Numbered from the stretch's first letter, positions 46,692 through 62,013 are shown. The stretch: DNA of 62,013 nt from Acidimicrobiia bacterium (GCA_051002015.1 JBPCMS010000034.1:1-62013), one strand, 5' to 3'. Notes: generated by a model from the letters alone, not told the origin. Program-made: numbers and translations.

Positions 46692-48055
46692 ACCGCCGTG
46701 TCCCGGTGGAACTGGCTCCAGGCGAACCAGAATGCCTGGTGGGTCGGGAGCTCCGAGTCACCGGCCGAGGCGCGGAATCCGCCGCCGTCTCCCACCAGCT
46801 CCACGCCACCAAGCTCCACCGACCGCCCCTCGGCCAGCGCCGCCCGGGCGGCGTCGACGGGGAAGGCGAGCGCCTGACCCTGCTCGGTGACCACCCCGAC
46901 GACCTGGGCCTGGACCGGCAACCGGGGATCGACCGGCCCGATGGGGAAGATGGGACCGTCGTCGTCCCTCCCGCCGAGGGGATCGAGCGGGTAGGTGCGG
47001 AAGATGCCGCCGTCCTCGGCCACGATGAGGGTGTCGGGATGGGCGGCGCGCCACTCCGCCCAGGTGCTTGCCACCACCGTGGTCTGGGCGAGCACCACGC
47101 CGGCTTCTCGTAGCGGCCCTGACAGCGCCTCCCCGGTGAACGTGTCGAACACCGAGCGGGTCCGCAGGTCGTACATCACCTTGTTCGAGCGCGACAGCAA
47201 CCCCGACGTGCGGAGCACGGGCTGCTCGAAGCCACCGGGTACCTGGTCGGTGTAGTAGGCCTGCGCCGAGCCGCACAGGGTGCAGTACGGGATGCCGAGA
47301 CGGCGCCCCCCGAGCGTCATGTTCACCATCTCGTGCACCTCCATGATGTTCCTGGGCAGGGCGACCGCCTCATCACCTTCGACGATCCCGAACACGATGG
47401 CGTCGTCCGGGTACCAGTCCCCCTGGTCGGCCGGGGTCAACGCCGGGTCGTCGAGCGCCGGGATGCACCCGCGCAGGCACGACTCGGGATCGCCCAGTTC
47501 GCGCTCGTCGATGAGCACGCCACCCCACGACACCAGGCGCCAGTCGATGGCAGACTCGGCGTCGGCGAAGAAGGGAGCCCAATGGGGCTCGACCAGCAGG
47601 AACAGCTCGGCCTTCTGTTCCCGGTAGTCGGGTGGGGCCGGGCGATCCCATGCGATGAGGTGGTTGGTCACGCTGCGCCAGGCGCCGGAGGCGAAGTCGG
47701 GGTCGGCGGCCGGGTCGACACCGGTCAGCTCTACGAAGGCCTCCACCAGGGCGTCGGTGTCGGGGCCGGGCGGCACGAAGCGCATGGCGTCGGACACCAG
47801 CCAGGCCACCCGGGCGTCGCCGGCATCGGCGAGCCGGCTCACCGCCTCCCCATCGAGGGCACGCTCTCGCAGCGACTCGACGATGCGGGTCCAAGCCGTG
47901 GCGACGGAGGGATCCACCGAGCCGTCACCGATGGGTGGCGCCGCCGGGTACTCGTAGCCGGGCGGATCCGAGGTTGGCGTGAAGGCCGCGTCCCCCTCTC
48001 GGGCGCCGCACGCCCCGATCGCCACCATCCCCGCCACCAACAGCAGGGTCTTCAC
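46667..48055 (-). CDS. DUF3179-domain lipoprotein
   Basis: Has a lipobox signal (MKTLLLVAGMVAIGACG) and the DUF3179 hallmark IPYCTLCGSAQAY. Confidence 0.8.
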   Translation of the reverse strand: MKTLLLVAGMVAIGACGAREGDAAFTPTSDPPGYEYPAAPPIGDGSVDPSVATAWTRIVESLRERALDGEAVSRLADAGDARVAWLVSDAMRFVPPGPDTDALVEAFVELTGVDPAADPDFASGAWRSVTNHLIAWDRPAPPDYREQKAELFLLVEPHWAPFFADAESAIDWRLVSWGGVLIDERELGDPESCLRGCIPALDDPALTPADQGDWYPDDAIVFGIVEGDEAVALPRNIMEVHEMVNMTLGGRRLGIPYCTLCGSAQAYYTDQVPGGFEQPVLRTSGLLSRSNKVMYDLRTRSVFDTFTGEALSGPLREAGVVLAQTTVVASTWAEWRAAHPDTLIVAEDGGIFRTYPLDPLGGRDDDGPIFPIGPVDPRLPVQAQVVGVVTEQGQALAFPVDAARAALAEGRSVELGGVELVGDGGGFRASAGDSELPTHQAFWFAWSQFHRDTAVWSPIGAP

Positions 48056-48084
48056 CGGTTCACCCTACTCCGAGCACCGATCGA

Positions 48085-48137
48085 GCGAACTTTGAGCGTC
48101 TCACACCGTCAGGCAGGGTGAGGCGCTCAAAGTTCGT
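48085..48137. repeat. 53-bp hairpin element, copy 2
   Basis: GCGAACTTTGAGCGTCTCAC-ACCGTCAGGCAGG-GTGAGGCGCTCAAAGTTCG, in the same orientation as copy 1. Its right arm also encodes the last codons and stop (..NEL*) of the CNNM-family gene. Confidence 0.75.
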
Positions 48138-49395
48138 TTGCTTCCGGGAGGTTGCGGGTCAACCGCACCTTCTCGATGGTGGTACCGGTGACACCCAGCA
48201 CCTCGACGGTCCAGTCCCCGGCGTCGACCGCGTCGCCGGTGACGGCCATCCGGCCTAGCGCGTCGAGCACCAGCCCGGCGATGGTGGAGTAGTCACCGTC
48301 CGGCAGCGCGATGTCGGCTTCGATGAGATCGTGGATCCCGAAGGTGCCACGGACGATCAGCGAGCCGTCCGGCTGCCAGTCGAGGTCGAGCATGTCGCGG
48401 TCGAACTCGTCGTAGATCTCTCCGACCAGTTCCTCGAGCAGGTCCTCGAGGGTGACGATGCCGTCGACCCCGCCGTATTCGTCGACCACCACGGCGAGGT
48501 GCTGGCGTTCCCGCTGCATCCGACGCAGGGCGTCGAGCACCAGCACGGTGTCGGGCAGAGCCAGGATCTTGGAGGTGTGGTCGCTCACCAACCCCGTCGA
48601 CCCCACCAGGTCCTTGAGGTGGACGACGGCATGGGTCTCGTCGAGCGAACCGGTGTACACCGGGGCCCGGGAATGGGTCGAGTCGAGCAGCCGGGTCACC
48701 CCATCGGCGGCGGGAAGGTCGGCGGGGAGCCCGGTCACCCGGGTGCGGGGCACCATCACGTCGCGCACGGTCAGCGTTGCCGACTCGAAGGCGCCGACAA
48801 CGATGGTGCGTTGGTGGAGGGTGAGGGCGCGGTGGGTCGACACCAGGTACTTGACCTCCTCTTCCGAGACGTCGTCCCTGACGTGGTCGGGATCGCCCCC
48901 GAAGAGCCGGACCACGATGTTGGTGGAGATGCCGAGCAGCCAGATGACCGGGCCGGTCAGCTTGGCGAGCAGCTCGAGGGGGCGGGCCGCCACCAGGCTC
49001 CATGCCTCGGGCCGTTGCAGCGCCAGCCGCTTTGGTACCAGCTCGCCGAACACCAGGCTGAGGAAGGCGAGGCCGATGGTCACCAGCACGATGGCGGCAG
49101 GCCGGGCGAAGTCGCCCAAGGGGTCGAGCGCCTCGGCGACCGGGGTCGCCAGGGTTACGGCGGCGGTGGCGCTGGCCAGCATCCCCGCCAGGGTTATCCC
49201 TATCTGGATGGTTGCCAGCAGCCGGTTGGGCTCACCGGTGAGCCGGCCGACGGCGCGACCGGTGGCGCCCCGCTCCTCCAGCGACTCGATCTGGGCCTGA
49301 CGCAGCGAGATCATGGCGAGTTCGCTCCCGGCGAACACGCCGTTGAAGATCACCAGCACCGCCACCAGCACGAGCTGGATCCACACCGCTTCCAA
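48127..49395 (-). CDS. CNNM/HlyC/CorC-family transporter-associated protein (DUF21 + CBS pair + CorC_HlyC)
   Basis: The DUF21 N-terminus is [23 protein letters not shown], followed by a CBS pair and a C-terminal transporter-associated domain. TTG 49393-49395 (GGAGG 6 nt upstream) is preferred. ORF-track start 49479 and ATG 49470 are alternatives. Confidence 0.8.
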
Positions 49396-49507
49396 CCACG
49401 ACCTCCGAGGAGAACCTACGGACGCCAGGTTACGCCGTCCCTGGTGCAGGGTGGCACGGATGTGTTCCATCTGGTACAATCATTGACCCAGTTGGATCGG
49501 AGGAACC

Positions 49508-49957
49508 GTGTCGACCAGGACCAGAACCGGTACCGGTGCGGTCGTCGAGGTGCTCGGTGGGCTCCGAGCGCTGAAGAGGGAGATCCGGACCACCGCTGAC
49601 TTGGCCGAGGCGGTGGAGACCGGGCTCCCCCTCGCCTCGCTGGGTATCGTCGTCCGCCGGGTGGCCGGGGAGGGTCGGCAGGCGACCGAGCTCACACACC
49701 GGGTCGTGCCCAAGACGACGCTGCAGCGGCGCCACGACCGCCTCTCGCCCGACGAGAGCCAACGTCTCGAACGACTCGCTCGTCTCACCGCGCTCGCCGA
49801 GCGCGTCTGGGACGACCCCGAGCCGGCTCACGAGTTCCTGGTCAGCCCGCAGCCGCAGCTTGGCGGTGAACGGCCGGTCGACCTGATCCGCACCGATCTC
49901 GGCACCCGCCGGGTCGAAGACCTCCTCTGGTCGCTCGAGTACTCCCTCCCCGTCTGA
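49508..49957 (+). CDS. Xre/MbcA/ParS-type antitoxin (DUF2384)
   Basis: GTG 49508 after GGAGGA. The C-terminal segment HEFLVSPQPQLGGERPVDLIRTDLGTRRVEDLLWSLEY is typical of DUF2384. A TACAAT -10-like hexamer lies at 49475-49480. Confidence 0.8.
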   Translation: MSTRTRTGTGAVVEVLGGLRALKREIRTTADLAEAVETGLPLASLGIVVRRVAGEGRQATELTHRVVPKTTLQRRHDRLSPDESQRLERLARLTALAERVWDDPEPAHEFLVSPQPQLGGERPVDLIRTDLGTRRVEDLLWSLEYSLPV

Positions 49958-50409
49958 TGGCGACCGGATGGCGGATCACCAAGACCCGCCACCACCCCTT
50001 CGATGGCACCGGCGCTCGGCTGCGCGGCGCCCGCTGGAACTCGCCGGGCCGGGAGGTCGTCTACGCCGCCGACACCTATGCGGGCGCCATCCTGGAGATC
50101 CTCGCCCACGCCTTGCGACCCAGAACGCTTCCCGGCGCACAGCAGGCGGTGCGCATCGACATCCCCGACGACCTGGTGGAGACCCTCGATCCCGACCGAC
50201 TGGCTGGGTGGGACACCAGGGAATCACCGGAGGCACGGACATTCGGTGACCGCTGGCTGGATGAAGGACGTTCGGCGGTGCTGTCGGTCCCTTCGGTCCC
50301 GGCCCGCCCCATCGGTCGGATGCTTATCGTCAACCCGCTCCATCCCCAGGCCGGGGCCATCAAGCTCTCCGATCCCTTCCCCGTTCCCTGGGACGAACGC
50401 CTGTTCTGA
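49957..50409 (+). CDS. RES-domain toxin (MbcT/ParT-like NAD-targeting)
   Basis: Starts within the antitoxin stop (TGATG). Has GARWNSPGREVVYAADTYAGAILEILAH and the SVPS motif. Confidence 0.85.
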   Translation: MATGWRITKTRHHPFDGTGARLRGARWNSPGREVVYAADTYAGAILEILAHALRPRTLPGAQQAVRIDIPDDLVETLDPDRLAGWDTRESPEARTFGDRWLDEGRSAVLSVPSVPARPIGRMLIVNPLHPQAGAIKLSDPFPVPWDERLF

Positions 50410-50482
50410 CCGAGACTCGCCACAGCCTCCCCGCTGATCAAGGCTCGGCCTGGCTCAAAGGGTCGCCGTTAGGCTGCCCGCC

Positions 50483-51244
50483 ATGTTGCTCAACGGGATG
50501 TCGGCCATCGTCACCGGCGGCGCCTCCGGGCTTGGGGCCGCCACCGCCCGCCGTCTCGCCACCGACGGCGCCAAGGTGGTCCTGGTCGATCTGCAGGTGG
50601 AGGCCGGTGAGGCCACCGCCGCCGAGATCGGCGGCGTCTACGTCCACGCCGACGTCACCGACCCCGACCAGGTGCGGGCGGCGGTCGTCGCCGCCGTGGA
50701 GATGGGACCGCTGCGGGCGCTGGTCAACTGCGCCGGCATCGGCACCGCCGCCAAGACGGTCGACCGGGAGGGCAACCCCCACGACCTCGCCCAGTTCACC
50801 AGGGTGGTGTCGATCAACCTGATCGGCAGCTTCAACTGCATCAGGCTGGCGGCGGCGGCGATGACCCGCAACGAACCCGACCCCGCCGGGGAGCGGGGCG
50901 CCATCGTCAACACCGCCTCGGTGGCCGCCTTCGACGGGCAGGTGGGCCAGGCCGCCTACTCGGCGTCCAAGGGTGGGGTGGTGGCGATGACGCTGCCCAT
51001 CGCCCGCGACCTGGCGCAGAGCGGCATCAGGGTCAACACCATCGCCCCCGGGATCATGGACACCCCGATGTTGGCCGGTCTCCCCGAAGCGGCCCGGGAG
51101 TCGCTCGGACACCAGGTGCTCAACCCGCCGCGCCTGGGCACCCCCGACGAGTTCGCCGCCCTCGTTCACTTCCTGCTCACCCACGGATACATGAACGCGG
51201 AGACGGTGCGGATGGATGGCGGCATCCGCATGGCGCCCCGCTAG
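50483..51244 (+). CDS. SDR-family oxidoreductase (3-hydroxyacyl-CoA dehydrogenase type-2-like)
   Basis: Has TGGASGLG, NCAGIG and YSASKGGV (the YxxxK catalytic motif). Confidence 0.9.
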   Translation: MLLNGMSAIVTGGASGLGAATARRLATDGAKVVLVDLQVEAGEATAAEIGGVYVHADVTDPDQVRAAVVAAVEMGPLRALVNCAGIGTAAKTVDREGNPHDLAQFTRVVSINLIGSFNCIRLAAAAMTRNEPDPAGERGAIVNTASVAAFDGQVGQAAYSASKGGVVAMTLPIARDLAQSGIRVNTIAPGIMDTPMLAGLPEAARESLGHQVLNPPRLGTPDEFAALVHFLLTHGYMNAETVRMDGGIRMAPR

Positions 51245-51253
51245 CGACCCGCC

Positions 51254-52621
51254 GTGCCCAGCCTGCTCGTCCGCAACGCCACCGTGCTGGTGACGATGGA
51301 CGACGACCGGAGCGAGATCCCCGGGGGTGGGCTCTACGCCGAGGAGGGGCGCATCGTCGCCGTCGGGCCCACCGACCGGCTGCCGGTGACCGCAGACGAG
51401 GTGGTCGATCTCACCGGCCGTCTCGTGCTCCCCGGGCTAATCAACACCCACCATCACCTCTACCAGACGCTGACCAGGGCGGTGCCCGGAGCCCAGGACG
51501 CCGGGTTGTTCGACTGGCTCCGCACCCTGTACCCGATGTGGGGACGGATGCGACCCGAGCACATCACGGTGTCCGCCACCGTGGGTCTGGCCGAGCTGGC
51601 TCTGTCCGGGTGCACCACCGCCTTCGACCACCTGTACCTGTTCCCCAACGGGAGCCGGCTCGACGACGAGTTCGAGGGTGCCGAAGCGGTGGGGATCCGG
51701 CTGGTGGCCTCGCGGGGGTCGATGAGCCTGGGGGAGAGCAAGGGCGGGCTGCCCCCCGACCACCTGGTCGAGGACGAGGACGCCATCCTCGAGGACTGCC
51801 TGCGGGTGATCGACCGATTCCACGACCCTGCCCCGGGGGCGATGACCCAGGTGGTGGTGGCCCCGTGCTCGCCGTTCTCGGTCACCGTCGACCTGATGCG
51901 CTCCGCCGCCGAGCTGGCCCGAGAACGGGGCGTGCGGCTCCACACCCACCTGGCCGAGACCATGGACGAGGAGGACTTCTGTGTGGAGCGGTTCGGGCGG
52001 CGCCCGATGGAGCTGATGGCGGACGTCGGCTGGCTCGGCGACGACGTCTGGTACGCCCACGCCGTGTACGCCGACGACGCCGACATCTCCGCCATGGCGG
52101 CGAGCGGGACCGGGGTGGCCCACTGCCCCACCTCGAACATGCGGCTCGCCTCCGGGATCGCCCCCATCCGCCGTTACCTGGCGGCCGGGGTGCCGGTGGG
52201 GCTCGGGGTGGACGGGTCGGCCAGCAACGACGGGTCGCATCTGCTGGCCGAGGCCCGCCAGGCGATGCTGCTGGGCCGGCTCGCCGCCTCCCCCAGCCTC
52301 GAGGGCGGCCCGCTGCTCACCGCCCGCACCGCCCTCGAGCTGGCCACCAGGGGCGGCGCCGCCGTTCTGGGCCGGACCGACATCGGGGTGCTCGAACCGG
52401 GCCGGTGCGCCGACCTGGTCGCCATCTCGCTCGACCAGGTCGGGTTTGCCGGGGCGATGCACGACCCGGTGGCCGCCGCCGTGCTCTGCGCCCCATCCGG
52501 GGTGGATGTGTCGATCGTGGGTGGACGGGTGGTGGTCGACCAGGGCCGTCTGGTCGGGCTCGAGCTCGAACCGGTCATCGAGCGTCACAACCGCCTCGCC
52601 GCCGAGCTGGTGAACGGATGA
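51254..52621 (+). CDS. Amidohydrolase, 8-oxoguanine deaminase / SsnA-like
   Basis: GTG start. Has LPGLINTHHHLYQTLTR, HLAET, HCPTSNMRL and LGVDGSASND. Confidence 0.85.
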   Translation: MPSLLVRNATVLVTMDDDRSEIPGGGLYAEEGRIVAVGPTDRLPVTADEVVDLTGRLVLPGLINTHHHLYQTLTRAVPGAQDAGLFDWLRTLYPMWGRMRPEHITVSATVGLAELALSGCTTAFDHLYLFPNGSRLDDEFEGAEAVGIRLVASRGSMSLGESKGGLPPDHLVEDEDAILEDCLRVIDRFHDPAPGAMTQVVVAPCSPFSVTVDLMRSAAELARERGVRLHTHLAETMDEEDFCVERFGRRPMELMADVGWLGDDVWYAHAVYADDADISAMAASGTGVAHCPTSNMRLASGIAPIRRYLAAGVPVGLGVDGSASNDGSHLLAEARQAMLLGRLAASPSLEGGPLLTARTALELATRGGAAVLGRTDIGVLEPGRCADLVAISLDQVGFAGAMHDPVAAAVLCAPSGVDVSIVGGRVVVDQGRLVGLELEPVIERHNRLAAELVNG

Positions 52622-52686
52622 CCGGGGGTCATCCATTCACCAGCCCTCCAACGGCTGTCACCCCCGACCGGTAGCATCGACCACCA

Positions 52687-52887
52687 ATGGCGAGGAGCAA
52701 CGTCCAGATCGCGCTCGACCTGGCCCAGCTTGCCGCCGATCTGGTGGCCCAGCGGCACCGCCGGGAACATCCCGAGGCGAGCGACGAGGAGATCCGCGGC
52801 GTGGTCGCCGCCTGGTATGCCAGTCGGCCCCAGGCACCGTACGGCGACGCGGTGGGCATCCCTGGTACCTGGCCGCGCTCCAGATGA
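52687..52887 (+). CDS. Small hypothetical protein (66 aa), possible antitoxin-like partner of the downstream nucleotidyltransferase
   Basis: The stop overlaps the downstream start as ATGA. It looks helical and no family is recognised. Confidence 0.4.
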   Translation: MARSNVQIALDLAQLAADLVAQRHRREHPEASDEEIRGVVAAWYASRPQAPYGDAVGIPGTWPRSR

Positions 52888-53480
52888 CCGAACTGGAGGT
52901 TTCCCTTCGCCAGGTCCTCTCCGATCTGGTGGATGAGGGTCTCCGGTTCGCCCTCGTCGGCGGGCTTGCGGTGTCGGCCCGCGCCGAGCCCCGACTCACC
53001 CGGGACTGCGACTTCGCCGTCTGGGTCGATGGCGACCCCATGGCCGAACAGGTGGTGGCGCAGCTGGCGGGGCGCGGCTACCGGGCCGGTGCGGTGGTCG
53101 AGCAACGGGCGACCGGTCGCCTCGCCGCGGTCCGTCTGGGCGGTCCCGACCCGGAGGGGGCGGTCGTCGATCTCCTGTTCGCCTCGTGTGGTATCGAGCA
53201 GGAGATCGTCACCGAAGCCGAGATGGTCGAGATCCTTCCCGGGCTCGTGGTGCCCCTGGCCCGGACCGGGCACCTCATCGCCATGAAGCTGCTTGCTCGC
53301 GACGACCGTCGCCGCCCGGCCGACCACGACGACCTGCGGTCCTTGGCGTCGATTGCCACCGATGCGGACTGGGAGATGGCGGGCAGCGCCGTCGCCCTCA
53401 TCGAGCAGCGCGGCTACGGGCGCGACCGTGACCTGGGGGGCGCCCTGGTCTCCCTTCGGGCCGGATGGGCCGACTGGTGA
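52884..53480 (+). CDS. Nucleotidyltransferase-fold protein (AbiEii-like / minimal NTase)
   Basis: FALVGGLAVSARAEPRLTRDCDFAV fits the GG..-x-R.T.D.D NTase pattern. The later HLIAMKLLARDDRRRPADHDDL is typical of this group. Confidence 0.6.
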   Translation: MTELEVSLRQVLSDLVDEGLRFALVGGLAVSARAEPRLTRDCDFAVWVDGDPMAEQVVAQLAGRGYRAGAVVEQRATGRLAAVRLGGPDPEGAVVDLLFASCGIEQEIVTEAEMVEILPGLVVPLARTGHLIAMKLLARDDRRRPADHDDLRSLASIATDADWEMAGSAVALIEQRGYGRDRDLGGALVSLRAGWADW

Positions 53481-53484
53481 CCGG

Positions 53485-54138
53485 GTGGACCGGGTGACCG
53501 GCTCGGGGGTTGTGGTGGGTCTGGTGCTGGTGGCGGGGGAGTCGTCGCGGCTCGATCGGGGGGTTCCCAAACAGCTCCTCGATCTGGGCGGCCGGTCGAT
53601 GGCCCGGATCACCGTCGAGGCGGCGGTGGCGTCGACGCTCGACCGGGTGCTGGCGGTCACTGGACGCGCCGCCCAGCAGGTAGCCGCCTCGCTGGGTGAC
53701 ACCTCGGCCACCATCGTCCACAACCCGGACTACCCCAGCGGCAACGTGTCGTCGCTGCTGGCCGGGGTCGACGCCGCCGGCGGCTTCGATGCGGTGATGG
53801 TGCTGCTCGGCGACATGCCCGAGGTCGACACCGCCGTGATCGACGCCATGGCGGAGGCGTGGCGAGAGCACCGTCCGTGGGCGGCCTACGCCGTCTACGA
53901 CAACGGCGTGCCCAACCACCCGTTCGTTCTCTCGGCGGATGCGGTCGGGGTGGTTAGGGCCACCCCCGGCCCCAAGCCGTTGTGGCGGCTGCTGGTGACC
54001 GACCCGCCGCAGCCGGTGCTGGCGGTTCGCATCGCCGCTCCGGCCCCGGTAGACGTCGACACCCCCGCCGACTACGCCGAGCTGCTCGCCCGGGTCAGCG
54101 CCGATCGGGTCAGATCGGACGACGGCGCTTCGAGCTGA
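53485..54138 (+). CDS. MobA/MocA-like NTP transferase (molybdenum cofactor cytidylyl/guanylyltransferase family)
   Basis: Has LVLVAGESSRLDRGVPKQLLDLGG and LLGDMPEV. The start is GTG 53485 or 53494. Confidence 0.75.
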   Translation: MDRVTGSGVVVGLVLVAGESSRLDRGVPKQLLDLGGRSMARITVEAAVASTLDRVLAVTGRAAQQVAASLGDTSATIVHNPDYPSGNVSSLLAGVDAAGGFDAVMVLLGDMPEVDTAVIDAMAEAWREHRPWAAYAVYDNGVPNHPFVLSADAVGVVRATPGPKPLWRLLVTDPPQPVLAVRIAAPAPVDVDTPADYAELLARVSADRVRSDDGASS

Positions 54139-54598
54139 TCACCCCGGTGTCGAACCCGCCCAGGTGGAGGGCCCCGGAGAAGCGGGCGTGCTCGATCTTG
54201 AGGCAGCGGTCCTGTACCACCTGGAGCCCGGCGGCGATCGCCCTGCGGGCAGCCTCGTCGTGGCGGAGCCCGAGCTGCAGCCACACCACCTTGGCACCGA
54301 CCGCGATGGCCTCGTCCACCACCTCGGGGATGGCGTCGTGGCGGCGGAACACGTCGACGATGTCGGGCACCTCGGGCAGATCGTGCAGGCTCGGGTAGCA
54401 ACGGCGGCCCAGAACCTCGGGGTACGCCGGGTTCACCGGATAGGCGGTGAGCTCCGTCCGCACCAGGTAGCTGGCGACGAAGTTCGACGAGCGCAGCGGG
54501 CTGGCCGACACCCCCACCAGGGCGACGGTCCTGGCGTTCTGGATGATGCGGAGCCGGTCGCCGGCGGTGGCCTCGGGGACGGCGACGGCACCGGTCAC
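54110..54598 (-). CDS. CoA-binding domain protein (YccU/YneT-like)
   Basis: GTG 54596-54598 overlaps the metY stop (GTGA). Has ARTVALVGVSASPLRSSNFVASYL and DIVDVFRR. Confidence 0.8.
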   Translation of the reverse strand: MTGAVAVPEATAGDRLRIIQNARTVALVGVSASPLRSSNFVASYLVRTELTAYPVNPAYPEVLGRRCYPSLHDLPEVPDIVDVFRRHDAIPEVVDEAIAVGAKVVWLQLGLRHDEAARRAIAAGLQVVQDRCLKIEHARFSGALHLGGFDTGVISSKRRRPI

Positions 54599-55881
54599 CA
54601 CGCCGCCGTCTCCAGCGCCTGGGTCAGGTCGGCGACGATGTCGTCCACCGTCTCCAGCCCTACCGAGATGCGGATCATGTCGTCGCCGATCCCGGCCGCC
54701 TCCCGCTCGTCGGCAGGCACCTGCTGGTGGGTGGTCGACGCCGGGTGGATCACCAGGGTCTTGGCGTCGCCGACGTTGGCCAGGTGCGAGGCCAGCTCCA
54801 CCGACTCGATGAACCGCACCCCGGCCTCGAAGCCCCCATCGAGCCCGAAGGTGAAAACCGCTCCCGGCCCGTCGGGTAGGTAGCGGCGTGCCAGCGGGGT
54901 CCACGGGTTGTCGTCGAACACCGGGAAGCTGACCCAGCGCACCTCGGGGCGCTCCCGCAAGAAGCGGGCCACCACGGCGGCGTTGTCGGCGTGGCGCTGC
55001 ATCCGCAGCGGCAGCGTCTCCAACCCGAGCAGCAGCAGGAACGAGTTGAACGGCGAGGGGGCGGCTCCGATGTCGCGCAGCAGCTCGACCCTGGCCCGCA
55101 TCAGGTAGCCGTACTCGCGGAAGTTCTCCCAGAACATCAGGTCGTGGTATGCCGGCGACGGCTCGGTGAGCAGCGGGAACCGGCCGTTGTCGAACGGGAA
55201 GCGGCCCGACTCGACGATCACGCCCCCGATGACCACCCCGTGGCCGCCGATGAACTTGGTGGCGGAGTGGACCACGATGTCGGCGCCGTGCTCGATCGGC
55301 CGGCACAGGTAGGGGGTGGCGAAGGTGTTGTCGACCATCAGCGGGATGCCGTGGCCGTGGGCCAGCTCGGCGTAGGCGGCGATGTCGAGCACGTCGGCGG
55401 CCGGGTTGCCGATGGTCTCGCCGTAGAGCAGCTTGGTACGTTCGGTGATCGCCTTCTCCACCGCCCCCGGGTCGCCGAAGTCGACGAAGGTGACGTCGAC
55501 CCCCATCCGCCGCAGGGTGACGTCGAACTGGGTGAACGTCCCGCCGTACAGCGACTTCGACGCCACCACCTCATCGCCCTGCTGGGCCAGGGTGAGCACG
55601 GCGATGAGCTGCGCCGCCTGCCCCGACGCGGTGGCCACCGCCCCCAACCCGCCCTCGAGCGACGCCATCCGCTCCTCGAAGGCGGCGGTGGTGGGGTTGC
55701 CGATGCGGGTGTAGATGCTGCCGAACGTCTGCAGGGCGAACAGGTCGGCGGCGTGCTGGGCATCCTCGAACACGTACGACGTGGTGGCGTAGATCGGCAT
55801 CGCCCGAGCCCCGGTCTCGGGGTCGGGCCGCTGCCCGGCATGGATGGCCCGGGTGTCGAACCCGAACCGGCGGTCCTCCAT
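54595..55881 (-). CDS. metY: O-acetylhomoserine aminocarboxypropyltransferase (sulfhydrylase)
   Basis: ATG 55879-55881 (MEDRRFGFDTRAIHAGQ). The PLP-Lys motif is HSATKFIGGHG. The ORF-track extension to 56175 is read-through. Confidence 0.9.
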   Translation of the reverse strand: MEDRRFGFDTRAIHAGQRPDPETGARAMPIYATTSYVFEDAQHAADLFALQTFGSIYTRIGNPTTAAFEERMASLEGGLGAVATASGQAAQLIAVLTLAQQGDEVVASKSLYGGTFTQFDVTLRRMGVDVTFVDFGDPGAVEKAITERTKLLYGETIGNPAADVLDIAAYAELAHGHGIPLMVDNTFATPYLCRPIEHGADIVVHSATKFIGGHGVVIGGVIVESGRFPFDNGRFPLLTEPSPAYHDLMFWENFREYGYLMRARVELLRDIGAAPSPFNSFLLLLGLETLPLRMQRHADNAAVVARFLRERPEVRWVSFPVFDDNPWTPLARRYLPDGPGAVFTFGLDGGFEAGVRFIESVELASHLANVGDAKTLVIHPASTTHQQVPADEREAAGIGDDMIRISVGLETVDDIVADLTQALETAAW

Positions 55882-55993
55882 GGCGGAATGGTAGGTACCG
55901 TCTCGGGGCGCTCCGACCGAGCCGGCCGGACCGAGGAAACGAGGACGGAGGTCGTGCCCGCCGGCGGCATCACCGTGCGGTAGGCTCCGACCG

Positions 55994-56056
55994 ATGAACG
56001 GATGGAGGACCTTGACGTGGTGGTGGCGCACGCAGCGAGGTGCTCGCACGCCCTGA
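55994..56056 (+). CDS. trpL: trp operon leader peptide (20 aa, MNGWRTLTWWWRTQRGARTP)
   Basis: ATG 55994 to TGA 56054-56056. Four of the 20 codons are TGG, three of them consecutive (56018-56026). It lies directly upstream of trpE and is followed by a hairpin plus T-rich tail. Confidence 0.7.
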   Translation: MNGWRTLTWWWRTQRGARTP

Positions 56057-56084
56057 TCCGCTCCGACCACCCCACCTCGCCGCC

Positions 56085-56115
56085 AGACCTCCGCTTCCCG
56101 GAGGTCTTTGTCATT
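56085..56115 (+). terminator. Candidate trp attenuator terminator
   Basis: AGACCTCCG-CTTCC-CGGAGGTCT (56085-56107) is followed by TTGTCATT. An alternative 8-bp pairing, GCGAGGTG (56035-56042) with CACCTCGC (56073-56080), links the leader ORF to the region 5' of the terminator. Confidence 0.5.
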
Positions 56116-56136
56116 CCCAGAACCACTCGAGGACCC

Positions 56137-57343
56137 ATGACCCCCACCTCCGGCTGCGCGACGCGGGCAGGGCAAGCTTCCTGCTCGGGTCCGTTGAACG
56201 GGGCCGGCTGGGCCGCAACTCGTGGATCGGGGCCGGGGATCGCATCGCCACCCTCGACAAGGCCGCCGCCACCGGGCTCCCCGTGGTCGGCTACCTGGGC
56301 TACGACGCCGTCGCCGCGCTGGAGCCGACCGTGACGCTCCCCGCGGACGGGCACGGCTTCCCGGATAGCCGGGTGGTGGTCGCCGACACCCTGGTGCGGT
56401 TCGACCACGGCGCCGGGATCGCCGAGGTGCTCGCCGGCGACCCCGACGAGATCGTCGGCAGGCTCGACGGGGGTGTCCCGTGGCGCCGGGATCGCCGAGG
56501 TGTCGCCGGGCCGCTGCGCCGCCACCCGGGCCGGGAGCGTAATGAGGACATGGTGCGCCGGGTGAAGCGTCACATCGCCGCCGGCGACGTGTTCCAGTGT
56601 GTGCCGTCGCAGCGGGCGGAGCGCCCCACCTCGGCCACCCCGCTCGACATCTACCGGACGCTGCGCCGGGTGAACCCTTCGCCCTACCTCTGCCTGCTCG
56701 AGCTCGACGGGATCGCCCTGATCGGCTCGTCTCCGGAGCGGCTGGTCGCTGCCAAGGACGGAGTCGCCTCGCTGTGTCCCATCGCCGGGACCACCGACGC
56801 CTCGGACGGCGACGCGGCGCGGCTGCTCGGCTCGGAGAAGGAGCGGGCCGAGCACATCATGCTGGTCGACCTGGGACGCAACGACCTGTCCTGGGTCTGT
56901 CTCCCCGGCACCGTCACCGTCACCCGCTCGCTCGAGGTGGAGCGGTTCAGCCACGTCTCCCACCTCGTCTCCGAGGTGGTGGGCTCCATCCGCCCCGGGC
57001 TGTCGTCGCTCGACGTGCTGGGCGCCTGCTTCCCGGCCGGTACCGTCACCGGCGCCCCCAAGGTGCGGGCCATGCAGCTCATCTCGGAGCTGGAGGGGTT
57101 CCGCCGGGGCCCGTGCGCCGGGGCGGTGCTCTACCTGCTACCCGACGGGACCATGGACGCCTGCATCGCCCTGCGGACGATCGTCGTCGCCGACGGGATA
57201 GCCTACCTGCAGGCGGGGGCCGGGGTGGTGGCCGCTTCCGATCCCGCCGCCGAGCACGAGGAGTGCCTGCGCAAGCTGGCCGCCTTGGAGATGGCGATCG
57301 ACCGGGCCGAGGTCGAGTTCGCCCTGGCGGGGGCGGGTCGCTG

Positions 57344-57344
<1 letters not shown>
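56137..57344 (+). CDS. trpE: Anthranilate synthase component I (compact type), with apparent 1-nt frameshift just after the likely ATG
   Basis: The TrpE frame reads ..[30 protein letters not shown].., [29 protein letters not shown] and GAPKVRAM. This frame is open from 56040 (the ORF-track start), but that overlaps the leader and attenuator. ATG 56137 after GAGGA is one frame off. See the finding. Confidence 0.8.
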
Positions 57345-57918
<574 letters not shown>

Positions 57919-57922
<4 letters not shown>

Positions 57923-58852
57923 CCGGTTCGCCCATCGTCCTCCGGGCCATCGACACCCTGCTCGAGGGTGCCGACCTGTCGCGTGCGGAGTCCCGCAACG
58001 CCATGGACGAGGTGATGGAAAGCGCCGCCACCTCCGCCCAGATCGCCGGGTTCCTGGTGGCGCTGCGGGCGAAGGGGGAGACGGCGGACGAGATCACCGG
58101 GTTCGCCGAGGCGATGCGGGAGCGGGTGGTTGCGGTCACCCCCACCCGGGCACCGCTGATCGACGTGGTCGGCACCGGTGGCGACGGTGCCGGCACCTTC
58201 AACATCTCCACCACCGCCGCCATCTTGGCCGCCGCCGCCGGGGCCGCCGTGGCCAAGCACGGCAACCGGGCGGCCAGCTCGGACGCCATCCTGGTCGGAT
58301 CGACCCTGATGCGCGCCACCGATCCCGCCGCCGCCCTGGTCGAGCTGCTGGCCCGGCCCCTGGTCAAGGTGTGCGGGTTGACCCGACCCGAGGACGTCGC
58401 CGCCGCCGCTGCGGCCGGGGCCGATCTTGCCGGCTTCGTCCTCGTCCCCGACAGCCCCCGGGCCGCCGCCGTCGTGCTCCCGGTGCCCGAGGGGATGCTG
58501 TCGGTGGCGGTGTGGGTGGGGGAGCCGGGCACGAGCCCGGCCGATCTCGACCAGGTCCACGACCGGCGGGCGGGCGCGGTGCGAGGACCACGGGCCGACC
58601 TGCTCCGTGCCGGTCGCACCGTGGCCACCTTCGTCGACCGGGCCTGGGGTGCCGGTGGGAACGACCATTGGGCGGAGGCCGCAGCCACCGAGGGCAGAGT
58701 GGTGCTCGCCGGTGGACTCGGGCCCGACAACGTCGCCGACGCCATCGCCGCCGTCAACCCATGGGCGGTGGACGCCTCGTGGTCGCTGGAGCAGCCCCGG
58801 GGTGAAGGACCACGACCGGATCCGGGCATTCGTCGAGGCGGTGCGGCGATGA
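57919..58852 (+). pseudogene. Chimeric remnant: trpD N-terminal ~121 aa fused in frame to the last ~25 aa of trpC and a trpF-like domain (frameshifted near its end)
   Basis: TrpD motifs are present up to [29 protein letters not shown]. At 58282 the sequence switches to [19 protein letters not shown] (TrpC tail). It then reads [33 protein letters not shown] (TrpF). The TrpF end [19 protein letters not shown] is in another frame (stop 58850-58852). Confidence 0.75.
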
Positions 58853-59927
58853 GCCTCACCGAGACCTTCGGTCCCTATGGGGGGCGCTACGTCCCCGAAA
58901 CGCTGATCCCGGCGCTCGACGAGCTGGCCGATGCCTGGGCGTCCGCCCGAACCGACCCGGCGTACCTGGCCCAGCTCGACCACCTGGGCGCCACCTACGT
59001 GGGGAGGCCCTCCCCGCTGACTGCGGCGGATCGGTTCGCCCCCGACCGGCGTCTCTACCTGAAGCGGGAGGACCTGAACCACACCGGCGCCCACAAGATC
59101 AACAACGCCCTTGGCCAGGTGGTCCTGGCGGGGCGGCTGGGCAAGCGGCGGATCATCGCCGAGACCGGGGCCGGGCAGCACGGGGTGGCAACGGCTACCG
59201 CCTGTACCCGGTTCGGGCTCGATTGCGTGGTGTACATGGGGTCCGAGGACATGCGACGCCAGCGCCCCAACGTGGAGCGGATGGAGCTGCTCGGGGCAAC
59301 CGTGGTGCCGGTGGAGATGGGGACCCGCACCCTGAAGGAGGCCACCAGCGAGGCGATTCGCGACTGGATCACCAACGTCGAGAGCACCCATTACGTGATC
59401 GGGTCGTGCGTCGGTCCCTCACCCTATCCGGAGATGGTGGCGAGCTGCAGGCGGTGATCGGCCGGGAATCCCGTCGACAGATACTCGAGGCGTACGGATG
59501 GGAGCGGTTCGACGCCGACGCTCGCGCCGCCGGAGCCACCGGGTTCATCCTCGCCGACGTTCCCGCCGGGGTCCGCCCCGAGTTCCGCCGCATCCAGCTC
59601 GTCGCCCCCACCTCCACCGACGAGCGGATCGCCCTCGCCGCCGCCGACACCGATGGCTGGCTGTACCTGGTGACGGTCGCCGGCACCACCGGGGCCAGGG
59701 AGGCGCCGTCGCCGGCCCTCGCCGGTCTGGCTCGGCGGGTTCGATCGCTCACCTCGGTGCCGCTCTACGCCGGTTTCGGGATCTCCACTCCCGACCAGGC
59801 GGCCGCCGCCGCCTCGCTCACCGACGGGGTGGTGGTCGGATCCGCCGCCGTCACCGTCGCCGCAGAGGGCCCGGGGGCGCTCGCCGGGTTGGTGCGCTCG
59901 CTCCGCACCGCCATCGACGCCGGCTGA
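58849..59927 (+). pseudogene. Chimeric remnant: trpB N-terminal ~215 aa (frameshifted) fused to the C-terminal ~140 aa of trpA
   Basis: TrpB reads [43 protein letters not shown], then a stop in frame. The next frame continues [19 protein letters not shown]. At ~59499 it jumps to TrpA sequence (ERFDADARAAGATGFILADVP..LVAPTSTDERI..GWLYLVTVAGTTG..PLYAGFGIS..DGVVVGSA). Confidence 0.75.
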
Positions 59928-60119
59928 CACGCGATACCGGCGTCGCGCATCGTCAAGGGACGTCCATGCTCCACGTGATCGGCCCACTGTCGGCGCAAGT
60001 GGAGCCGGATCCATATACGAAGCCAAGCCCTGCCCAACAGCACAGGCGGTCTTCAGACCCTCGCCTCGAGACACCGGCGGGAGCAGCCACAGCCCACCAA
60101 GCGGTCCCGGTTTCGGATG

Positions 60120-60731
60120 TCACCCCCGGGGTTCCGGGAGGTCGTCCACGGCGGTGGTCTCGCCGATGAGCAGCAGGTAGCCGTCCTCGATCGTGGGCTC
60201 GATGGTGGTGGCGCCGTGGGGGGCGCCACCGATGTGGCGGTAGTGGCCGTCGCCGGTTCGCCACACCACCCGGGCCTGCGGATCGCGATGGCCAGCGACC
60301 CAAACCTGACCAGCGGCCGCTTCGACGAGCCGGCGCGGGGTGCCACCGAACACCACCCGTCCATGATCCAACACCAGTACCTGCTTGCACAGCGTGGCGA
60401 TGTCGTCGGTCTGGTGGCTGGACAGGAGCACGGTGCGGTCCTCGGCGAGCCGGGAGATGGTGTCACGGAACCGGAGCCGCTGCTCGGGATCGAGGCCGGC
60501 GGTGGGCTCGTCGAGGACGAGCAGCTGGGGATCGCCGATCAATGCCTGGGCGAGGGCGACCCGACGCCGCATACCCCCCGAGAGCGCCCAACTTTGCGTA
60601 GGTTGAGAACGGCGTCCCACACCAAGTTGGTCGGGCTCGGTTGCCAGCGCTGCCGGTCGGATCGCTCCCGCGATGCATACCGGGCCGTCCGCTTCGAGCG
60701 CATCCGCCGGCGCGACGTTGTATGAGTCCAA
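60120..60731 (-). pseudogene. ABC transporter ATP-binding protein remnant lacking the Walker A region
   Basis: Contains the signature LSGGMRRRVALAQAL, Walker B LLVLDEPTAGLD and an H-loop SSHQ plus a C-terminal domain. No GxxGxGKT/S is present in the ~45 residues preceding the signature. Confidence 0.65.
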
Positions 60732-60859
60732 GGGCGCAGCACCGCCCCAAGATTACGTGTAGTGTTCGTGCAGGTGGGTAGCTGCGGAAGAACAGCAGCC
60801 CTCAGCTCTCTTGCCAGCGAGCTGGTGGGCGGCGTCCAAGGTCAACCAGGGGGGTTGCG

Positions 60860-62013
60860 GTGGACAAGGGGTACGAGGTCTTCTGTCTTGTCGACCCGCT
60901 CTTCTACGACTCGCCCACTCTCCCCCGCGGTGACGACGTCGACTTCGAGATCGCTCGTGGTCCCGTTCCTGAGGGATGGGACCGCTCCCAGCTCGACGAC
61001 TGGCTGGTGTACCGGCCCGAAGGCCTCCCGTTCCCCTCCCAGGGATGGAAGATCCACGTGTCGGCCTGTCTGGACAACGCCGAGGCGGTCCTCGCCGTGG
61101 TGCACCAGTACTGCGTCCGGGCGCGGATCCCGTTCAAGTTCGTACGCAGCCGCCGGCTCCTGCTCCTCTGCAACGCCAAGTACGCGGATCGGGCGTCGAG
61201 CGGCAAGTTCATCGCCATCTACCCCGCCGACGACGCCGAGCTGAAGCTCGTGCTGACCGAGCTGGGCGAGCGGCTGGAGGGCCAGGCGGGGCCCTACATC
61301 CTGAGCGACCTGCGGTGGGGCGAGGGCCCGCTCTACGTCCGCTACGGCGGGTTCGCCGAGCGGTACTGCGTCGGCGCCAACGGGGAGATCGAGCCGGCCA
61401 TCGAGGATCCGACCGGGGCCCTGGTCCCCGACCAGCGTGGGCCCACGTTCAGCCCGCCGCCCTGGGTCCCGCTCCCGGACTTCCTCGCACCGCACCGAGC
61501 GGCGCGCGACCGCGCCACGTTCCAAGAGGTGCCGTACCGCATCGACGCCGCCCTGCATTTCTCCAACGGCGGCGGCCTGTACGCAGGCGTGGACCTGCGG
61601 ACCGGCGAACAGGTCGTGCTCAAGGAGGCACGCCCGTATGCCGGGCTGGCCACCGACGGGACGGATGCGGTGGTACGCCTGGCCAACGAGCGCGAGATAC
61701 TCGAGCGCCTGGCCGGACTCGACGTCGTGCCCGCCCTGCGCGACGACTTCGTCCTCGGGGAGCACCACTTCCTCGTGCAGGACCTCGTCGACGGTACGTC
61801 ACTGAGCGATCTCCTGGCCGACCGGTATCCTCTGGCGCTTCCGGAGGTTGACGGCGCCGCCCTCACCGAGTACACCGAGTGGGCCCTCGACGTCTGCGAC
61901 CGGGTGGAGCGGGCGGTCGCCGCCGTCCACGACCGGGGCGTGGTCATCGGCGACCTCCACCCGTCAAACGTGCTGGTCCGCCCCGACGGCGGCATCGTGC
62001 TGATCGACTTCGA
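60860..62013 (+). CDS. Class III/IV lanthipeptide synthetase (LanKC/LanL-type), N-terminal lyase and kinase domains; continues beyond window end
   Basis: Not in the ORF track because no stop lies inside the window. GTG 60860 after AGGGGGG. My translation is VDKGYEVFCLVDPLFYDSP..GWKIHVSA..ARIPFKF..SGKFIAIYP (lyase domain), then GGGLYAGVDLRTGEQVVLKEARP..HDRGVVIGDLHPSNVLV..LIDF (Ser/Thr-kinase-like). It is open to base 62013. Confidence 0.85.
   Translation, partial: MDKGYEVFCLVDPLFYDSPTLPRGDDVDFEIARGPVPEGWDRSQLDDWLVYRPEGLPFPSQGWKIHVSACLDNAEAVLAVVHQYCVRARIPFKFVRSRRLLLLCNAKYADRASSGKFIAIYPADDAELKLVLTELGERLEGQAGPYILSDLRWGEGPLYVRYGGFAERYCVGANGEIEPAIEDPTGALVPDQRGPTFSPPPWVPLPDFLAPHRAARDRATFQEVPYRIDAALHFSNGGGLYAGVDLRTGEQVVLKEARPYAGLATDGTDAVVRLANEREILERLAGLDVVPALRDDFVLGEHHFLVQDLVDGTSLSDLLADRYPLALPEVDGAALTEYTEWALDVCDRVERAVAAVHDRGVVIGDLHPSNVLVRPDGGIVLIDF

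Follow-up and report, generated by a model that had tools for sequence, protein, structure and literature searches.

Does a tryptophan biosynthesis (trp) operon that looks broken in an assembled sequence reflect genuine gene decay, and, if so, what does it imply for its bearer? This question is raised by positions 55994 to 59927 of a 62,013-nucleotide (nt) contig assigned to an Acidimicrobiia bacterium (GCA_051002015.1, JBPCMS010000034.1:1-62013), the whole of which is referred to here as the window. A previous inspection of the DNA made without database searches, called here the sequence-only reading, had proposed that two large internal deletions and several local frameshifts ruined the operon, and had kept assembly collapse as an alternative. 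The comparisons described below favor, with a probability of roughly 0.9, the view that one sublineage of an uncultured actinobacterium related to the Gaiellales carries a truly pseudogenized trp operon, in which every structural gene but trpG is predicted to be inactivated.

The operon and its intact counterpart

The trp region has a G+C content of about 72%. Its predicted open reading frames (ORFs) are a TrpE-like frame of 434 amino acids (aa) at 56040-57344, trpG at 57344-57922, a 512-aa frame at 57919-59457, and another, of 157 aa, that begins at a GTGA overlap and ends at 59927. The 434-aa frame, as called in the database, begins at an upstream GTG within the leader region, and an exact look-up of this frame and of the 512-aa one matched GCA_965610425.1 only. 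In profile searches (Pfam and NCBIfam), the 512-aa frame is a patchwork of TrpD (positions 2-113 of 330), the end of TrpC, N- and C-terminal parts of TrpF, and TrpB (positions 2-198 of 385). The last frame covers positions 101-236 of the 256 in the TrpA profile.

A protein search with this chimera returned 375-aa TrpB proteins that are 98% identical to its TrpB part. In a sister lineage, represented by contigs L004-L013 from ENA and JGI metagenomes, an intact trpE-G-D-CF-B-A operon stands at the same locus at about 97% nucleotide identity, which provides the reference against which the claimed decay is measured. In this intact allele, the genes encode 414 (trpE), 192 (trpG), 343 (trpD), 386 (trpC-trpF fusion), 375 (trpB), and 235 aa (trpA). 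The window aligns to these contigs by BLASTN in four collinear blocks at 96.4-97.6% identity, and the upstream genes are common to both lineages (RES, adh_short, amidohydrolase, Rv0078B, AbiEii, IspD, CoA-binding, and Cys/Met PLP enzyme). The ancestral layout is a leader peptide and attenuator followed by trpE-G-D-CF-B-A, over about 5.8 kilobases (kb). The closest genome representatives are Gaiellales/Gaiellaceae metagenome-assembled genomes (MAGs), whose TrpB is 75-82% identical; Gaiellales MAGs have the same short TrpE, 386-aa TrpC-TrpF fusion, and gene order. A scan of genome contigs with the intact TrpB gave nothing above 82% identity, the species itself being absent from that collection, and a scan of metagenome contigs with TrpG gave nothing above 71% identity among the matches listed.

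Residues were mapped by tblastn of the intact sister-lineage proteins against the window, together with profile searches. The retained pieces are the following, with tblastn extents in parentheses:

56145..57344, plus strand: trpE remnant, codons 16-414, from tblastn and outgroup polarization (TrpE aa 16-414 at 56145-57341)
57344..57922, plus strand: trpG, undamaged, 192 aa, with a GATase match over its full length (TrpG aa 1-192 at 57344-57919)
57919..58282, plus strand: trpD', codons 1-121 of 343, TIGR01245 positions 2-113 of 330 (TrpD aa 1-121 at 57919-58281)
58283..58852, plus strand: 'trpCF, the final ~25 residues of the TrpC domain and the TrpF domain, from alignment and tblastn (TrpCF aa 194-370 at 58273-58803 and, in another frame, aa 367-386 at 58790-58849)
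58849..59490, plus strand: trpB', codons 1-197 and then 198-214 frame-shifted, TIGR00263 positions 2-198 of 385 (TrpB aa 1-197 at 58849-59439 and, in another frame, aa 198-217 at 59439-59498)
59491..59927, plus strand: 'trpA, codons ~88-235 with the native stop kept, TIGR00262 positions 101-236 of 256 (TrpA aa 86-233 at 59478-59921)

These remnants are homologous to their respective Trp enzyme families, follow the canonical order, and occupy a syntenic locus. In agreement with the sequence-only reading, the profile alignments recover partial domains only, which score below the family cut-offs: 132.6 bits against 199 for the TrpD piece (TIGR01245; intact sister protein, 396), 296 against 392 for the TrpB piece (TIGR00263; 559), and 81 against 102 for the TrpA piece (TIGR00262; 163). 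TrpE is under the TIGR00564 cut-off of 518 even when intact, with 398 bits for the intact protein and 371 for that of the window. The gene taken earlier to be intact, trpG, is indeed the sole undamaged structural gene, and its protein is identical across four decayed-allele assemblies.

Five deletions in the operon

Lesions were called from a global DNA alignment to the intact allele L004 and from inspection of the junctions. Over the operon, the window differs from L004 by five deletions (37, 1256, 2, 1, and 749 nt) and zero insertions. The three larger ones sit between direct microrepeats of 3-7 nt:

56134..56146, plus strand: native trpE ATG (56134) and junction of the 37-nt deletion (56142/3) in the L004 alignment, the ATG being out of frame with the rest of trpE
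58280..58282, plus strand: junction J1 of the 1256-nt deletion (L004 8177-9432), microhomology CGG, with trpCF codon ~197 now following trpD codon 121 in frame
59484..59490, plus strand: junction J2 of the 749-nt deletion, microhomology CTCGAGG, with TrpB aa ~215-375 and TrpA aa 1-~87 removed

The first of these (L004 6000-6036; short direct repeat C[C/T]ACC) eliminates trpE codons ~5-16 (…ISTDLLTPLGAY…). It had been missed by the sequence-only reading, which located the other deletions to within a few bases. Thus, the end of TrpD was placed at 58281, exactly where its tblastn match stops at J1, and the jump from TrpB to TrpA was placed at about 59498, near J2 (GTCGNCAGATACTCGAGGCGTACGG). The TrpC C-terminus and a shortened TrpF were also said to continue in the TrpD frame; the in-frame fusion stands, but the shortness of TrpF is not a lesion. 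Because the Gaiellales relatives share the 386-aa TrpC-TrpF fusion, the shortened TrpF is a lineage trait, and both it and the short TrpE are characteristic of the order. Both small deletions had also been anticipated. A frameshift does separate the TrpF end, although the 2-nt deletion responsible, between 58791 and 58792 (GAG-AC-CAG), lies 3 nt upstream of the C4/G4 run at 58795-58802 to which it had been assigned. It puts the final 20 trpCF codons (58790-58852) in another frame, and the ORF continues into trpB. There, the 1-nt correction proposed near 59440, after about 197 aa of TrpB, corresponds to a 1-nt deletion between 59438 and 59439 (GGT-C-GGCG).

Four of the five deletions shift the frame, and the 1256-nt one fuses trpD to trpCF in frame. 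The 512-aa frame is open because of two chance joins, in addition to the rarity of stop codons at such G+C: the 1256-nt deletion (≡2 mod 3) fortuitously places trpD in the reading frame of trpCF, and the 2-nt deletion fortuitously brings the TrpF tail into that of trpB. By comparison, the upstream flank, with 5.7 kb of genes, has only two 3-nt insertions or deletions (indels) relative to the sister lineage. Therefore, the clustering of disruptive lesions in the operon, which the sequence-only reading had noted, is real.

Homology to L004 breaks off after trpA (59922), just past its stop codon. This break was considered as a further lesion and rejected, as two features account for it: the intact lineage has an IS630-like element there, and a one-codon indel, relative to the intact allele, lies directly before the 'trpA stop. 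In L004 (11896-12003), as well as at the ends of L005-L011, a minus-strand ORF ends 64 nt past trpA with …HQDLVSKIMRYIDRHNDTAKPFAWTYTGQPLKIAS and a stop codon; we take it to resemble the C-terminus of an IS630-family transposase. All intact-allele contigs break inside this ORF, and the decayed lineage has unrelated sequence there.

Recurrence in independent assemblies

The lesions recur in other data. An assembly already mentioned (L001, GCA_965610425.1) matches window positions 47344-62013 with 23 mismatches and no gap, is identical from 54156 on, and contains all lesions. J1 is spanned without gaps by L001, L002 (JGI 3300012045), and L003 (ENA ERZ27252449), the last two of which share five single-nucleotide polymorphisms (SNPs) and represent a second haplotype. 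Over 59079-60621, an interval with the 1-nt deletion, J2, and the downstream flank, four Logan run-level assemblies (L015-L018) match the window at 100% identity. A third haplotype, L183 (GCA_020064125.1; 58800-60053, six mismatches), bears the 1-nt deletion and J2 plus an additional 1-nt deletion at 59498. Similarly, L184 (ENA ERZ27252449; 55741-56547) has the 37-nt trpE deletion and an additional 1-nt insertion at 56502/3. In all, the 37-, 1256-, 1-, and 749-nt deletions are each found in at least two haplotypes or data sets, which agrees with the earlier claim of real decay as opposed to sequencing error.

It could be argued that the large lesions are collapses or chimeric joins and the small ones sequencing errors, since the data come from metagenomes, one sample (ERZ27252449) contains both alleles, a situation in which assemblers can mis-join, and related long-read assemblies have frameshifted trp ORFs (P0004 and L100). 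Nevertheless, identical junctions are present in at least six other assemblies (NCBI, JGI, ENA, and Logan) produced by different assemblers and covering three SNP haplotypes. Moreover, the microhomology at the junctions is far under k-mer size, and there are no repeats long enough for a collapse. Finally, a difference of about 3% from the intact haplotype runs through the whole of the decayed one, which shows that its contigs are no mosaics of the intact allele. With four of the five deletions present in more than one haplotype and in assemblies made independently, the assembly collapse that had been left as an alternative is rejected, and an artefact of any of these kinds is considered extremely improbable.

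From ERZ27252449, both alleles were assembled (L003 and L184 decayed, L012 intact); therefore, a prototrophic sister strain is present in that sample. The same co-assembly would be expected if the decayed and intact operons were two copies in one genome, generated by a large segmental duplication, and not alleles of different strains. However, at least 6 kb of flank, up to the limit of the compared DNA, has the same gene order in both forms and is 97% identical, and only one form is found among the contigs of most samples. In addition, their downstream flanks are unlike, the intact form having the IS630-like transposase and the decayed one an ABC remnant together with a lanthipeptide synthetase gene. 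A duplication is thus very unlikely, and the operons are treated here as strain alleles.

Substitutions in the remnants

The pairwise ratio of nonsynonymous to synonymous divergence (dN/dS) was computed against the intact allele L004:

seven flanking genes: 0.15-0.36
trpE: 0.52
trpG: 0.12
trpD': 1.56
'trpCF: 0.39
trpB': 0.07
'trpA: 0.41

The nonsynonymous and synonymous differences (Nd:Sd) of trpE and trpD' together, 35:20, differ from those of the flanking genes, 37:65 (p=0.0014), and from those of trpG (p=0.003). When changes are assigned to branches with five Gaiellales outgroups, TrpE has 11 replacements at conserved sites on the decayed branch versus 4 on the intact one. Decayed-branch replacements at outgroup-invariant sites are E30G (in the LLES motif), E219K, R265W, Y339C, and D379A. 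TrpG has zero decayed-branch replacements. For the 3′ remnants, there are about 3 nonsynonymous and about 8 synonymous changes on this branch (outgroup L101). The relaxed-selection signal is weak or absent in trpB' and trpG.

Within the decayed clade, the trp remnants show 11 nonsynonymous and 4 synonymous substitutions, close to the neutral ratio, versus 8 and 15 in the flanks (p=0.045), with none in trpG. The TrpB' replacements A120T and T179S are absent from L183, which already has J2; therefore, both are younger than the J2 deletion. This neutral-like ratio and the extra frameshifts show that the remnants are drifting after a fairly recent inactivation, with trpE and trpD giving the stronger, and possibly the older, signal.

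Each of the two large deletions left a long open frame (512 and 157 aa), and it might be proposed that these are functional novelties, namely a TrpD'-TrpF-TrpB' fusion and a half-barrel TrpA, held open by selection. Such a view is at odds with the extent of the losses: the catalytic halves are gone from TrpB, which lacks aa 215-375, and from TrpA, which lacks four of its eight beta/alpha units, and the TrpD remnant is without most of its alpha/beta domain. Furthermore, continuity of the frames needs out-of-frame read-through in a sequence this rich in G+C, the further 1-nt deletion of L183 disrupts the 157-aa ORF, and the polymorphism is about neutral. Functional novelty is accordingly judged exceedingly improbable. 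As pseudogene remnants, the two frames would be accidents of 72% G+C sequence with few stop codons, not new enzymes.

The top protein hits, P0001-P0030, resembled natural TrpC-TrpF-TrpB fusions or similar chimeras. A fusion family was therefore also considered and discarded, as P0004, at least, is out of frame through the C-terminal half of TrpF and the related contig L100 is broken up along its length. IGPS, PRAI, and TrpB domains are joined, at 57-68% identity, in many ENA-only proteins of 550-830 aa; the indications suggest that they stem from indel-rich assemblies and are not true triple fusions.

Leader peptide and attenuation

The region ahead of trpE was described in the sequence-only reading as a retained leader and attenuator that had become a fossil. 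Both elements are present:

55994..56056, plus strand: trp leader peptide ORF, MNGWRTLTWWWRTQRGARTP and a stop codon, with three tandem Trp codons (WWW), from translation
56085..56117, plus strand: attenuator terminator, 9-bp stem AGACCTCCG/CGGAGGTCT with loop, then TTTGTCATT, from terminator search and fold

The leader peptide of the intact allele reads MNGSSTLVWWWRPQRGERTP, and a W-rich leader ORF is found at the same place in 6 of the 6 relatives examined (the intact allele and five Gaiellales). Between 55850 and 60200, the hairpin at 56085-56107 with its T tract is the sole site resembling a terminator, and 17 nt separate it from the native trpE ATG. An alignment fold shows that the hairpin is kept across relatives, together with an upstream helix that has 6 compensatory pairs. 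The z-score of the single-sequence fold is -0.8, with no alternative pairing with the terminator 5′ arm demonstrated, and Rfam gave no match in 55500-60500. On the predicted gene content, the leader and attenuator now precede only pseudogenes and the intact trpG, so that "fossil" applies to a regulatory region that is still ahead of one intact gene.

The attenuator is conserved among Gaiellales MAGs (window 55990-56117; L004 5846-5974; upstream of trpE in L021-L026). Upstream of the leader ORF, a -10-like hexamer, TAGGCT, is located at 55981-55986; this TANNNT-like element is only ~8 nt ahead of the leader ATG, a spacing that suggests a near-leaderless transcript. The leader ORF differs between the lineages at 7 of 63 nt, well over the ~3% background. 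Further upstream, within the divergent intergenic region, the lineages differ by two 1-nt indels and one 20-nt indel (window positions 55911-55943; L004 5746-5799).

Trp attenuation via a leader peptide is known from trpL of E. coli and from actinobacterial trpE leaders in Streptomyces and Corynebacterium. The present leader is like trpL-type attenuators in having a short ORF with tandem Trp codons and an intrinsic terminator just ahead of trpE, conserved in relatives. It is unlike them in the lack of an Rfam match and in the proximity of the -10-like hexamer to the leader ATG.

Weighing the decay

Several observations weigh against the reading of a truly pseudogenized operon in a single sublineage. 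The 2-nt deletion occurs only in the window and in the near-identical L001, and the extra frameshifts of L183 and L184 come from single short contigs and could be errors. Support for the junctions is at the level of assembled contigs. Most of the selection signal derives from trpE and trpD', as trpB' has a very low dN/dS and 'trpCF and 'trpA resemble the flanks; the decay of the 3′ half is therefore recent. In addition, the synonymous divergence (dS) between neighboring genes ranges from 0.008 to 0.125, a sign of recombination between the lineages that weakens branch-based arguments. An intact TrpA (L009/P0126) even bears "decayed-type" C-terminal residues. Since dS varies in this way and such residues occur in an intact protein, the lineages recombine, and arguments from branches are only indicative. 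Lastly, the search for other trp genes covered this contig, so that tryptophan auxotrophy is no more than likely.

The unevenness of dS can also be followed along the compared region. Between window positions 50165-59927 and L004, it varies ~15-fold, with 0.008 for the CoA-binding gene, 0.125 for the amidohydrolase gene, and 0.12 for trpG. All 23 differences between L001 and the window fall within 47858-54155. Together, the uneven dS and these clustered differences suggest recombination between co-occurring strains.

If another functional trp set existed elsewhere in the genome, the operon could decay without causing auxotrophy. Pseudogenes commonly arise from redundant copies, and the comparison was limited to the contig. 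By contrast, the decayed locus is orthologous, by synteny, to the sole operon seen in the sister lineage and the Gaiellales relatives, tblastn with the intact sister proteins finds no trp paralogue in the 62-kb contig, and the protein search revealed no second near-identical TrpB from this lineage besides the allelic intact form. A redundant copy is consequently regarded as quite unlikely. Under the preferred reading, this lineage would rely on external tryptophan, and trpG may persist by chance or through a second role.

Neighboring genes

Downstream of the operon, the minus strand at 60120-60731 encodes a truncated ABC-transporter ATPase that matches ABC_tran positions 105-137 of 137 only (signature and Walker B). 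Its Walker A is absent in all upstream frames, and this is probably a second gene remnant beside the trp operon. It is followed on the plus strand by an ORF (60860-62013) that runs off the contig end and contains RamC_N and protein-kinase domains, resembling a class III lanthipeptide synthetase (LanKC/RamC). This ORF lies in a patch of lower G+C (0.64-0.67), and the L001 contig ends 14 nt past the window end. Upstream of the operon there are two toxin-antitoxin-like pairs, at 49508-50409 and 52687-53480, composed of an Xre-like/MbcA-ParS protein with a RES-domain protein and of Rv0078B with an AbiEii-like protein; the sister lineage with the intact operon has these pairs as well.

Comparison with known losses and implications

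The deletions probably arose through slipped-strand or illegitimate recombination, because short direct repeats flank the larger ones and a deletional bias is expected in bacterial pseudogenes. Such a bias in pseudogene decay, along with deletion mediated by microhomology, was reportedly described by Mira, Ochman and Moran in 2001. The present case is textbook-like in this respect, as all five lesions are deletions and the larger ones lie between short repeats (CGG, CTCGAGG, and C[C/T]ACC).

Inactivation of trp genes is known from bacteria associated with hosts. For instance, ocular strains of Chlamydia trachomatis have frameshifts and deletions in trpA and trpB, and some Buchnera lineages have trpEG pseudogenes. 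As in those organisms, the genes are broken here in some lineages and intact in close relatives, and the remnants are still recognizable. Unlike them, the bearer is uncultured and apparently free-living, a Gaiellales-like bacterium of high G+C that is known from metagenomes; six of the seven enzyme functions are struck by five separate deletions, and a prototrophic sister occurs in the same sample. The loss of biosynthetic genes accompanied by cross-feeding is said to be the subject of the "Black Queen" idea of Morris et al. (2012) and of work by D'Souza et al. (2014). The locus fits that picture in that one lineage has given up a costly amino-acid pathway that a close relative, found with it in at least one sample, retains. 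A general literature search gave no close precedent, and searches for papers on Gaiellales tryptophan auxotrophy or on these samples and assemblies found none.

A more elaborate joint reading is also conceivable, although it is tentative and somewhat unlikely as a whole: a co-occurring natural auxotroph/prototroph pair (~97% identity) belonging to a single free-living Gaiellales-like species, in which the decay followed an order. In such a sequence of events, trpE and trpD/C may have been inactivated first, and trpB (and trpA) would possibly have remained under purifying selection until recently, for indole salvage. Likewise, trpG may still be constrained, given its dN/dS of 0.12 and the lack of polymorphism among four decayed haplotype sequences, and its product might serve in addition as PabA, the amidotransferase of folate synthesis.

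The phenomenon itself is already known, and no new mechanism is revealed. For annotation, the deposited 512-aa "TrpD/PRAI/TrpB" and 157-aa "TrpA" proteins would be pseudogene read-throughs and not multifunctional enzymes. For the biology of these organisms, the locus would be a clean, datable case in which an uncultured lineage of soil actinobacteria recently lost a costly amino-acid pathway, with its intact sister lineage found in the same samples. The paired alleles could be used as a marker to tell auxotroph from prototroph strains and, in metagenome time series and across sites, in tests of cross-feeding.

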